Source of the DNA: Malacoraja senta | Lineage: Eukaryota | Direction of reading: 5' to 3' | Length of the DNA stretch: 64,000 nucleotides | Assembly: GCA_038087875.1 (NCBI GenBank) | Contig: CM075992.1 | Coordinates: forward strand, 6,946,001 to 7,010,000 | Shown here: one piece after another, positions 6,942-26,710 of the stretch | Layout: every line of letters begins with the position of its first letter | Numbering within the stretch: position 1 is the first letter of the stretch | Translations under genes and position numbers: made by a program | Notes under the pieces: model-generated | Seen by the model: only the letters and a program-made list of their open reading frames with translations | Databases searched by the model: none | Told to the model about the DNA's origin: nothing

Positions 6942-7464
6942 GCCTGATGTTGCTTTGCATAGAGCATGTTCGATGGGTTTTAATTTCTCATTCTCTATGT
7001 TCAGGATTGCTGACTCCCCTTGGAAGGGGGTGTGAAAGGCCTACATTCCTAACGTGTTGTTGTTAGGCAGTCAATCAAGGCCTACGTGTCGCTGCCAAGC
7101 ATTGAGGCTCAACCTCTTTGATGCTTGTGATGTGTTCTTGGCATCTCACAGAACGAGTACAAAAATCTCCAACCCAAACTGGCCTCACAGAAACACCGAT
7201 AACAAACATCAAGAAAAAAGACACAAAGTGCTGGAGTACTTCAGCGGGCCAGGTGCGGGTGCATCTCTGGAGGACGTGGAGAGGTGATGTTTCAGGTCGG
7301 CACCCTTCTTGAGCCGAAACGTCACCGATCCATGTTCTCCAGAGATGCAGCCTGACCCACTGAGGCACTCCAGCACTTGGGTCTTTGTTAAGTAGCCCAG
7401 ACCTACCCTGGGAGTTGGATGCTTGTCCACCTCACTTGAAGCGAATGGACTCATCTGGATGATG

Positions 7465-19902: not shown

Positions 19903-20748
19903 TCTCCTAATGGACTGTGATTCTGCATTGCTACCAGTCGAGTTGACCCATTCCTTCTCTCCAGAGATGCTGCCTGACCCGCTGAGTTACTCCAGCATTT
20001 TGTGTCTATCTTCGGTGTAAACCAGCATCTGCAGTTCCTCCCTACACATCAGTCTAGTTTAGTTTATTAGTTTATTGCCACCTGTACCTGTGTGTTGGAA
20101 TTGCTGTACCAGGCCGAGTTGCAAACAATCATAATACTCTCTACAGTAGATCTGTACAGGAATATCTAACGTTATTCCCTTATCATGTATCTGTACACTG
20201 TAAATGGCTCGATTGTAATCATGTGTTGTCTTTCCGCTGACTGGTCAGCACGCAACAAAAGCTTTTCACTGGAGCTCAGTACACGTGACAATAAACTAAA
20301 CTAAACTACAGCGCAGTAAAACTCCATTAACATGAACCTGAAGACCAAGTTCCTTATTATTTCATCCTTCCCCTCAAAAGCAAGAGTCATATAGAGACCC
20401 TGCAATGTTTGTTCGTGTGTGTCGACCAGGGATGGGATGGAGCGGAGAGTCGCGCACAGCAGGCTCCAGCGCTGGATATCCTGCCGACAGGCACACACAC
20501 ACACACAGGCAACAGAAAGACCATTATGGCAGCAGAGGCCAACAGCTGGAAGGAATGAACTCAGGCAGCAGCTGGGCAGACATGGGACTTGCTGGAGAAT
20601 GGACAGTAGTGGTCTGTGTGGTGGCTGGTTACTGGGATGTGGGTGTGGGAAGTGGAGGGGGGGAGGAAGAGGGGGGGGGGGGAAGAGGAGAGGAAGGGGG
20701 GAAAGGGGGGGCTGTGGGACTGGGGGTGGGGTGTGTTTACTGGGCGGT

Positions 20749-21484: not shown

Positions 21485-21990
21485 GACAATAGACAATAGA
21501 CAATAGGTGCAGGAGTAGGCCATTTGGCCCTTCGAGCCAGCACCGCCATTCAATGTGATCATGGCTGATCATCCCCAATCAGTACCCCGTTCCTGCCTTC
21601 TCCCCATATCCCCTGACTCCGCTATTTTTAAGAGCACTATCTAGCTCTCTCTTGAAAGCATCCAGAGAACCGGCCTCCACCGCCCTCTGAGGCAGAGAAT
21701 TCCACAGACTCACCACTCTCTGTGAGAAAAAGTGTTTCCTCGTCTCCGTTCTAAATGGCTTACTCCTTATTCTTAAACCGTGGCCCCTGGTTCTGGACTC
21801 CCCCAACATCGGGAACATGTTTCCTGCCTCTAGCGTGTCCAAACCCTTAACAATCTTAGGTACACAAAAATGCTGGAGAAACTCAGCGGGTGCTGCAGCA
21901 TCTATGGAGCGAAGGAAATAGGCAACAATCTTATATGTTTCAATGAGATCACCTCTCATCCTTCTAAACTCCAGAGTGTACAAGCGTGGA
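21485..21990 (-). mobile_element. Young CR1 LINE 3' fragment containing a nested 65 bp Penelope-derived insert (21859-21923)
   Basis: ORF LYTLEFRRMRGDLIETYKIV...[insert]...KIVKGLDTLEAGNMFPMLGESRTRGH; AACAATCTTA duplicated at 21849-21858 and 21924-21933. Confidence 0.9.
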
Positions 21991-22311: not shown

Positions 22312-22820
22312 GTGTTAAAGAAGGAACTGCAGATGCTGGAAAATCGAAGGTACACAAAAATGCTGGAGAAACTCAGCGGGTGCAGCAGCATCTATGGAGC
22401 AAAGGAAATAGGCAACGTTTCGGGCCGAAACCCTTCTTCAGACTGATAGGGGGTGGGGAGAAGAAAGGAAAAAAGGAAAAAAGGCGGAGGAGGAGCCCGA
22501 GGGCTGGGGGAGGGGAGGAGACAACCAGAGGGCTGATGAAGGGGAGGGGACAGCAAGGGCTAGCAGAATTGGGAGAATTCAATGTTCAAGCCCCCAGGAT
22601 GTAGACTGCCCAAGCGGAATATGAGGTGCATTTCCTCCAATTTCCGGTGTTGCTCGCTGTGGCCATGGAGGAGACCCAGGACAGAGAGGTCAGATACGGA
22701 ATGGGAGGGGGAGTTGAAGTGCTGAGCCACCGGGAGGTCAGGTTGGTTATTGCGGACCGACCGGAGGTGTTCGGCGAAACGATCGCCAAGCCTCCGCTTG
22801 GTCTCACCGATGTAGACCGG
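22312..22820 (-). mobile_element. Penelope-like retroelement 3' end: GIY-YIG endonuclease C-terminus, 3' UTR and hammerhead
   Basis: ORF 22560-22835 VYIGETKRRLGDRFAEHLRSVR...PVAQHFN...RKLEEMHLIFRLGSLHPGGLNIEF carries the YIG, R, E and N GIY-YIG motifs. Confidence 0.9.
22411..22444 (-). ncRNA. Minimal hammerhead ribozyme motif in the Penelope 3' UTR (sense strand of the ORF)
   Basis: Minus AGT-CTGAAGA-A-GGGT-TTCG-GCCC-GAAAC-GTT-GCC: stem II closed by a UUCG loop, GUU triplet. Confidence 0.75.
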
Positions 22821-24252
22821 CAACATGTTTGCCACAGTGTGGTCTGAAGGGCCTGTTCCATTGCTGTATGGTTCTGTGGACGTTGGTTAGGTCCCTGCTA
22901 AATCTACAAACCTCAATTGCCTCCCCTTCGCCCCCTCTGTCCCAAAGAAAACAAGGCCATTTTGCCCAATCTTTCCTCTGAGCTCCCAATATCCAGACCT
23001 GGCAGCATCTTGGCTAAATAAACTCCTCTCCTGTGTAATCACATCGCCCCTGTGATGTGGCGACCAGCTCTGGACCAAGAGGTCGTGCTGTGGCCAACTT
23101 AATGAGAGTGCTGTTATTTAGACTGTAAACATGAGGCTGGATGTGCTGAGGCTGTCAGTGAGGGGGAGGTGCAGACCGCACTTGCACTTCAACGTCGGAG
23201 AAGGTGGTAATTATGGAGCTGCAGCAAGTGGTGAGTGGAGACGGTGGATGTTTGGGACGAGGCTTTCGTTCCGAGAGCCAGCATCAATGGGGGAGTAGAC
23301 CCCCATGACACCAGCTCTGGGAGCTGACATAGAACACTGCTGTCTGTATGGAGTTTGTACGTTTTCCCCATGACTGCGTGGGTTTCCTCTGGGTGCTCCC
23401 ACCTCCCAAAATGTGCGGGTCAGAACCCTTCTTCGGACCTAGTGCGATTCTTGAGGCTGAAGAAGGGTCTCGACCTGAAACATCGCCCATCACTTATCTC
23501 CAGAGATGCTGCTTGACCTCTCTGAGTTACTCCAGCACTTTGTGGCTATCCCCATAATAAGGATAGACACTACCCCATGCACACTAGGGACAATTTTACA
23601 TTTATACCAAGCCAATTAACCAACAAACGTATTGCTGCTGAGGATGTGCAGGAAGGAACTGCAGATGCTGGTTTAAACTGAAGATAGACATAAAAAGCTG
23701 GAGTAACTCAGCGGGACAGGCTGCATTTATTGGAGGGAAGGAATGGGTGACGTTTCGGGTCTCTCCAGAGATGCTGCCTGTCCCGCTGAGTTACTACAGA
23801 TTCTTGTGTCTATCTTCGGATGAAACCAGCATCTGCAGTTCTTTCCTGCACATCCGTAATAGCACATCCGTAATAAGGAGGTCTGTTAAAATGAGGGTTT
23901 ACTGTGGAGATGACTTGAGTTGGCTCACAGACCAACTGTGATCTCAATGGATGGCAGAACAGGTTCGAGAGGCTAAATAGTCCAAGTTTGTTCCCATGGT
24001 TACACAACAATGGGCTCAGATCGCAAATCAACACATCTGCAGCGAGAGATCTGGAAAATGTAAGTGTTTGACTCCACATCTCAGCAGAGCTGATCTTTCA
24101 TCAGGCTGCTCAGTGTCACAGACCCCCACATCACACGCACACTCCACCATGGAGCAAGGGAGACAAGCTTGGAGATCCGACAGCATCCGACACAAATGTC
24201 AGCTGCAATCAGAAGATGCAAAGCTCAGTCACATGTGGTGATGGTCTAGGGT

Positions 24253-24770
24253 CACACACACACACACACACATGCACACACACCAACAGCACGTGCAAAT
24301 GCGCGCACATGCACACACACACACAGACACACACACACGGACACGCACACACGGACACACCAACAGCACATGCCCAAACACACATAAACAAATACACAGA
24401 TGCACACACACACGGACACACACACACACATGGACACGGACACACACACACAGACACACACACGGACACGCACACACGGACACACCAACAGCACATGCCC
24501 AAACACACATAAACAAATACACAAATGCACACACACACGGACACACACACACACATGGACACACACACACGGCACACACACACGGACACACACACACACA
24601 CACACCAACAGCACATGCTGAAACACACATAAACAAATGCACAAATGCACACACATACATACACACACACATACAAACTACCAAAACGGACACAGACATA
24701 CAAACACACAGCACACGTACATACATACACACGTACATACATACACACGCACACACACACACACGCACTA
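24253..24770. repeat. CA-rich minisatellite with an approximately 120 bp higher-order unit
   Basis: CACACCAACAGCACATGC...AAACACACATAAACAAAT recurs at about 24356, 24481 and 24601. Confidence 0.85.
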
Positions 24771-25076
24771 ACAAAGGAGATGTATAGTGCAAGTTTTTAC
24801 ACAGAGGCTGCTGAGTGTCTGGAACATGCTGCCAGGGGTGTTGGTGGAGGCAGACATGATAGTGCTGTTTATGACACTTTTGGATAGGCTCATGGATATG
24901 CAGGGAATAGATATGGATTATGAGCAGGAAGATTAGTTGGCCTTGGCATCATGTTCTGTGTAGACACTGTGAGCTGAAGGGCCTGTTCCTGTACTGTCCT
25001 GCATTTGTTCTAAACACACACATACCCACTCACACACACGAGCACACTCTTAAACATACATGCCTATATATATATA

Positions 25077-26710
<1,634 letters not shown>

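Follow-up and report, generated by a model that had tools for sequence, protein, structure and literature searches.

The stretch of DNA analysed here, a window of 64,000 nucleotides from Malacoraja senta, carries a 65-bp insert that begins at the base following the predicted cleavage site of a hammerhead ribozyme, and the question raised by this locus is whether such insertions record self-cleavage of the ribozyme in the germline. Positions refer to the window unless signed; signed numbers count from the NUH triplet, with its H as -1 and the next base (22413, minus strand) as +1. Our analysis points, with moderate confidence, to the insert being a short retrocopy of a Penelope-like element (PLE) whose start at the cut site is probably a coincidence, and to rare restarted copies elsewhere as the likely record of ribozyme-cut templates.

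The 65-bp insert and its target site

The insert, its flanks and a second copy with a similar start are as follows.
21859-21923, minus strand: 65-bp insert, corresponding to +1 to +65 in the end repeat of the PLE, on the downstream side of the cut predicted for the hammerhead
21849-21858, unstranded: copy of the target-site duplication (TSD) at the 3' end of the element, AACAATCTTA, with 1 nt of microhomology
21924-21933, unstranded: TSD copy at the element's 5' end, AACAATCTTA; the three bases that close it in the sense direction, GTT (21926-21924), are the same as the NUH triplet
21660-21848, minus strand: host repeat, an open frame resembling the C-terminus of LINE ORF2, identified from its translation and 76 other host hits
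19946-20049, plus strand: second copy, from an older subfamily, starting exactly at +1, with an extra G at 19945 and a 9-of-10 TSD

The minus-strand sequence of the insert is GCCTATTTCC...GTGTACC; the insert is 94.7% identical to the copy at 22413-22349, and its 3' end is the first tail end of the PLE end repeat. The insert sits inside an older LINE, which we take to be CR1/L2-like. Analysis of other copies of this host repeat revealed empty sites, where the 10-mer AACAATCTTA is present once and followed directly by TATGTTTC; the empty site is matched exactly in eight of 76 host hits (for example L207, L197, L031, L034 and L227), the rest having diverged. Since the host copies carry the 10-mer singly, the duplication around the insert is a true TSD, and the insertion with a 10-bp TSD reported in the first-pass annotation is real. 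That annotation also placed the 5' end after GTT, with an ambiguity of 3 nt due to microhomology; this holds, because the TSD itself ends in GTT and the 5' boundary may lie anywhere from -3 to +1. The position given for the hammerhead, 22411, was incorrect: GTT of the reference copy occupies 22416-22414 and +1 is 22413. The target 10-mer (21849-21858) agrees at six of ten positions with the element sequence just past the 3' end of the insert, hinting at a loose primer-template pairing.

The second copy does begin at +1 (19946), as had been claimed, after one extra G; its TSD copies, CAGTCGAGTT at 19935-19944 and CAGTCTAGTT at 20050-20059, agree at nine of ten bases. In the window, three of 43 copies start at -3 to +1, compared with about 2.2% expected, giving P = 0.25 for two or more such starts and P of about 0.07, calculated by hand, for three or more. 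The coincidence of starts with the cut in the window is not clearly above chance. The start of the 65-bp insert at the predicted cut is probably explained by chance and 3 nt of microhomology, and we consider it unlikely that this insert was derived from cut RNA.

The parent element and its predicted hammerhead

The reference copy of the element contributes three features.
22560-22829, minus strand: 3' end of the PLE open reading frame, the C-terminal half of a GIY-YIG endonuclease (P0001), in the 5'-truncated reference copy
22440-22447, minus strand: dominant 5' boundary of family copies (-34 to -27), ATCAG/TCTG after a pyrimidine tract
22414-22443, minus strand: predicted minimal type I hammerhead, with a CUGAAGA core (22441-22435), stem II with a UUCG loop, GAAAC, palindromic ACGU, and GUU at 22416-22414

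The repeat is the end repeat and tail of an EN+ Penelope-like element. The end of the reading frame upstream of the reference repeat reads YIGETKRRLGDRFAEHL, with YIGETKRRL...EHL at its terminus. The P0001 fragment itself found no match in Pfam or in PDB; it scores 0.95 to GIY-YIG clusters (Atlas), seven of the nine homologs scanned match GIY-YIG at E < 0.01, two of these exceeding the Pfam cut-off, and the longest homolog (813 aa, 49% identical over the fragment) carries RVT_1 upstream of GIY-YIG. A CX2-5CxxC linker is present in the homologs P0007 (63%) and P0143; the window copy ends before the linker region. The cited portion of PMC8557442 gives the CXnCxxC linker as a mark of Neptune/Nematis. 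An inverted arm lies directly upstream in 45 of 124 young copies, partial tandems appear in segment maps, and TSDs measure 10-21 bp (33 simple insertions). The 3' ends form two clusters about 38 nt apart (+63 to +69 and +98 to +103, the reference copy ending at +103), and the optional tail of 30-40 bp, a PLE trait, is present. Exact matches to +1 to +27 number 36,579 across the 1.94 Gb genome, from which no full-length copy of the element was recovered.

Several further arrangements of the element were observed. A head-to-head inverted pair lies at 23633-23864 of the window, and other inverted pairs occur near 7313, 46898, 53348, 54940, 56215 and 56890; the inversion junctions of head-to-head pairs often fall on the hammerhead palindromes. 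A long CA-rich simple-repeat tract spans 24240-26000. The loci L018-L028 (G000:C1, about 3.87-4.04 Mb) belong to a tandem repeat of about 2.45 kb with a young PLE copy in each unit. In two database proteins, P0061 and P0003, this GIY-YIG terminus is fused with either a GPCR or a DUF4518 domain, and these fusions are probably gene-prediction chimeras over PLE copies.

Cleavage of the predicted hammerhead would fall between 22414 and 22413. The CUGANGA and GAAA core, the NUH triplet and stem II are kept in 23 copies of the young subfamily, 13 of the intermediate and 77 of the old, with GUU or GUC as the NUH triplet and U-G or U-A as the stem II pair depending on the subfamily. The palindromic positions 15.2-16.2 (dimer formation) read ACGU in the consensus of each of the three subfamilies. 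Cleavage has been described for PLE hammerheads that act as dimers. The core, the bulged base before stem II, G10.1-C11.1, the palindromic 15.2-16.2 and the lack of helix III agree with described minimal hammerheads, whereas helix I differs from them, with two contiguous pairs only (U-G or U-A, plus G-C) followed by mismatches in place of the usual 4-5 bp, and this short helix makes ribozyme activity uncertain. No Rfam match was found in the window at the gathering threshold, and free-energy folds did not return the ribozyme form. RNA-seq of related organisms gave no pile of read starts or ends, these fragmented reads being uninformative on cleavage.

In the young subfamily the long tail (22312-22327) is complementary to the core (22431-22441, minus strand), a predicted pairing with z of -1.8 in the young consensus that is absent from the intermediate one. 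The resulting long hairpin is predicted by this folding model to block the ribozyme, and cleavage might, speculatively, follow the unzipping of the tail from the core.

The main boundary of family copies coincides with the upstream edge of the hammerhead, and TSDs confirm starts at -31 to -28. ATCAG/TCTG after a pyrimidine tract resembles both an initiator and a 3' splice site. For D. virilis Penelope, an internal promoter is described in the cited part of PMC2377424, and an intron ending at helix I in PMC4209133; with respect to helix I, the CAG/TCTG boundary lies just where that intron ends, and the 2-bp helix I beside the intron 3' end in D. virilis compares with a 2-bp helix I beside a pyrimidine tract and CAG here. 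We favour a transcription start over a splice-site effect as the likely meaning of the -30 boundary. In the TSD-defined copies neither a shared upstream exon nor a cap-derived G at -30 is evident; an extra G before starts at -36 to -23 was counted by eye in 11 of 18 copies (P = 0.005), which is suggestive only. At L153 a junction leads from +3, via one G, back to -31, and a similar joint occurs in 10 reads of one RNA run from a related organism.

Other candidate features were rejected or set aside. An intron as the source of 75-77-nt skips in RNA reads was set aside, as the reads look like diverged old copies aligned in two pieces. A second cut at GUC (-30 to -28) does not fit starts at -31 and -30 rather than -27, and helix I is lacking there. 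The idea that a GG insertion at the cut marks a subfamily was dropped, as none of 291 intact hammerheads carries one.

5' ends of ordinary copies

The first-pass annotation had proposed that the inserts may be reverse-transcribed 3' products of self-cleavage, with mapping of 5' breakpoints over all copies as a check. A random sample of 100 stretches of 10 kb gave 283 copies that satisfy two limits, a 5' end no later than +22 and a 3' end no earlier than +50. Among them, four start at -3 to +1, three at -7 to -4, seven at +2 to +5 and 108 at -34 to -27; the hazard per 4 nt is 0.01-0.04 around the cut, compared with 0.29-0.47 at -27 to -34. Genome-wide exact patterns, in which five mismatches were forced ahead of a 4-nt window (with a shorter anchor for +2 to +5), gave 141 starts at -7 to -4, 184 at the cut, 347 at +2 to +5 and 1495 at -31 to -28. 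The corrected shares of the 36,579 matches are about 1.3, 2.2, 3.8 and 18% in the same order, approximate values that use a single denominator throughout. The mapping revealed no peak after the NUH triplet, the main boundary lying 27-34 nt upstream, and the two named inserts cannot, by themselves, be called cleavage products.

Copies with A at +1 were examined among the first 100 of the 347 matches in the +2 to +5 window. Fourteen of these start exactly at +1, compared with 7-9 expected (P = 0.01-0.07), and GG immediately precedes +1 in five of the 14, compared with 0 of 291 intact hammerheads.

Re-start junctions, arrays and their explanation

Direct junctions, in which a tail end of one unit is followed by the 5' part of the next, were collected from complete genome-wide exact-match lists of 73, 16 and 2 matches (acceptors from about -12 to +9) and from lists further upstream with 17 and 11 matches. 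Head-to-tail units of 61 nt were first seen at unrelated loci in the cut-window list. The donor (3') side is nearly fixed, at +60 to +63 or about +99, and usually lacks homology, which defines the last feature.
22312-22353, minus strand: two fixed resumption sites in the tail, +61 (22353) and +99 (22315), 38 nt apart

Once duplicates had been removed, the hand-curated table comprised 40 fixed-donor loci; it leaves out 11 loci whose donors lie at +64 to +74 and six from the upstream lists in which a spacer or TSD separates the copies. The acceptor is exactly +1 at 16 of the 40 loci, +7 at five and +8 at four; four are ambiguous and span the cut, and other positions are represented by two loci at most. 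Against a flat expectation of 1/21 or 7%, the excess at +1 has P of 1e-11 to 4e-9 by loci; by junction types, where +1 accounts for 8 of 28, P is 3.5e-5 to 5e-4, or 7e-4 to 0.011 after a 21-fold correction, these values applying to a class of junctions picked after the data were seen. The +1 acceptor occurs under either donor, at 12 of 27 loci for +60 to +63 and at 4 of 13 for +99, the +99 subset alone being weak after correction (P = 0.055-0.22), and sources with G or A at +1 both contribute, with no significant enrichment of A among the +1 re-starts (5/16 compared with 5/37, P = 0.15). In the first-30 samples, which overlap the main set, re-starts were found at 3 of 29 loci at the cut and at 0 of 83 elsewhere (P = 0.016). 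The excess at +1 in re-start junctions likely records cut templates. Accordingly, of the suggestion that these sequences preserve a germline record of cleavage, only the part concerning this rare class stands (16/40 at +1); ordinary copies (4/283) do not bear it out, and neither do the two inserts taken alone.

Segment maps of these insertions follow a common order: between the two TSDs lie, in turn, an inverted arm (not always present), a partial unit, complete units and a final unit that extends to a normal end. The 61-nt units span +1 to +61 without the catalytic core, and up to nine exact units occur in one array (L293). Each insertion appears to generate re-starts of its own, because several stops occur within single insertions (L314 at +8, +28 and +34; also L317, L301 and L313) and an extra A is present at two of the four junctions of L350. 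We argue, though it is not proven, that the 11 loci carrying 61-nt units are independent; the length of the arrays was partly expanded as DNA, as read from a mutation shared by two units of L293. In the +1 re-start insertions no forward segment lies clearly upstream of +1, with one chance match of 1 nt (L354). The inverted arm passes the cut in three of them (L254, L349 and L364), so that uncut RNA was also used. Upstream, 13 loci have single junctions spread over -34 to -22, the region with most ordinary 5' ends; if the -30 boundary is a physical end, so few re-starts there count against the cleavage reading.

The alternative that survives best, and one we regard as rather unlikely, is that no cleavage is recorded, the excess at +1 being produced by stalling of the polymerase at the folded, uncut core, by homology between +1 to +4 and +63 to +66, and by a few source arrays that inflate the counts. 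It is consistent with the missing peak among bulk copies, with the weak helix I, with the inverted arms that run past the cut (L254, L349 and L364) and with the second acceptor cluster at +7/+8 (9/40), where +7 pairs at 7 of 8 bases with +62 to +69, although homology accounts for this cluster in part only. Homology, however, predicts +7/+9 and +2 in preference to +1; 16 junctions were observed at +1, and the better-paired register, +2, has no fixed-donor junction in the table. The +99 donor lacks such homology and still gives +1 at 4 of 13 loci. The arms of L349 (-22 to +65) and L364 (-24 to +66) are contiguous past the cut, so an array source could not have supplied them. Stalling should also raise simple truncations at +1, for which the excess is marginal at most (14 compared with 7-9, P = 0.01-0.07).

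A rolling-circle origin of the 61-nt arrays, from a small RNA circle formed by ligation of the cut 5' end to +61 in the manner proposed for retrozymes, is very unlikely. Nine exact units in L293 and arrays that begin mid-unit (L069, L252 and L363) would suit a circle, and circles were proposed for PLE tandems by Cervera and de la Pena (PMC4209133); against this, the last unit usually continues beyond +61 to the normal end (+64 to +102), an end that a circle does not have, the junctions of L350 differ by an added base, and there is no second cut at +61. Equally improbable is the general view that inserts are reverse-transcribed 3' cleavage products and that 5' ends of the family peak at the cut: both named copies start at +1 and copies with A at +1 show the marginal excess and added GG, but this view is refuted for the bulk of copies by the random sample (4/283) and by the 184 genome-wide starts at the cut, which lie between their neighbours (141 and 347) and far below 1495.

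Under the preferred reading, a short retrocopy at 21859-21923 and cut templates in the rare restarted class, the PLE enzyme would nick DNA and start reverse transcription inside the RNA, near +61 to +66 or +99 to +102. It would usually run to the boundary near -30, the likely transcription start, or alternatively stop at random and join through microhomology, as may have happened with GTT at the 65-bp insert. The hammerhead would have cut a small share of templates; here run-off of the enzyme would take place at +1, at times with untemplated bases added, and resumption at +61 or +99 without homology would give units, joined head to tail, whose first base is exactly +1. Template jumping triggered by a template end is known for R2. 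More tentatively, it is possible that the hammerhead cuts the RNA in the germline, perhaps as the reverse transcriptase unzips the core-paired tail, and that this telomerase-related enzyme runs off the cut end and re-initiates repeatedly at its fixed internal site, writing telomerase-like arrays of cut-bounded units.

Cleavage of PLE hammerheads in vivo is stated to be an open matter in PMC4209133 and in the cited portion of PMC8557442. A close parallel is Poseidon of Anolis carolinensis, the one reconstituted PLE, which, in the sections of PMC11167929 cited here, likewise has a hammerhead in the pLTR, two internal sites of reverse transcription start that bracket a tail of 30-40 nt, priming without homology and extension of both DNA strands. 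The same sections (Frangieh et al. 2024) report that Poseidon cleavage is unnecessary in vitro and that RNA ends at the cut were not found; they contain no description of repeated re-starts, whereas re-start junctions here peak at the cut; close homologs here also differ in carrying the Neptune/Nematis-type linker. For R2 with its HDV-like ribozyme, the cited part of PMC3774820 documents genomic 5' junctions that reflect the cut site and untemplated bases added on run-off. Both traits recur here, but the cut of R2 defines its normal 5' end, which it does not do here, where the signal is seen solely in re-start junctions, a rare class. Metazoan non-LTR retrozymes, as outlined in the cited portion of bioRxiv 10.64898/2026.07.22.740005, are also short tandem PLE-derived units moved by PLE machinery; they carry a hammerhead in every unit, in contrast to the 61-nt units, which hold post-cut sequence only and no core. 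A literature search found no paper on such re-start junctions, with most subscription journals outside its coverage.

With young copies numbering in the tens of thousands, such a genome provides a countable readout of PLE hammerhead cleavage. Normal 5' ends do not lie at the cut, but rare restarted insertions appear to be marked by it, and fixed resumption sites without homology allow a direct test of internal initiation and of behaviour like repeat addition in the sister group of telomerase. If true, the more tentative reading, of germline cutting and repeated re-initiation, would be evidence that PLE hammerheads cleave in vivo and that a PLE reverse transcriptase re-initiates iteratively.

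Shorter tandem units were also observed. Units of 55 nt (+7 to +61) occur in L283, L285 and L287, where +7 to +14 pairs at 7 of 8 bases with +62 to +69. Short tandem repeats of antisense -21 to +12 lie inside the inverted arms of L043, L362 and L288, and these antisense repeats also appear in RNA reads of related organisms as joints that go back by 32-34 nt.
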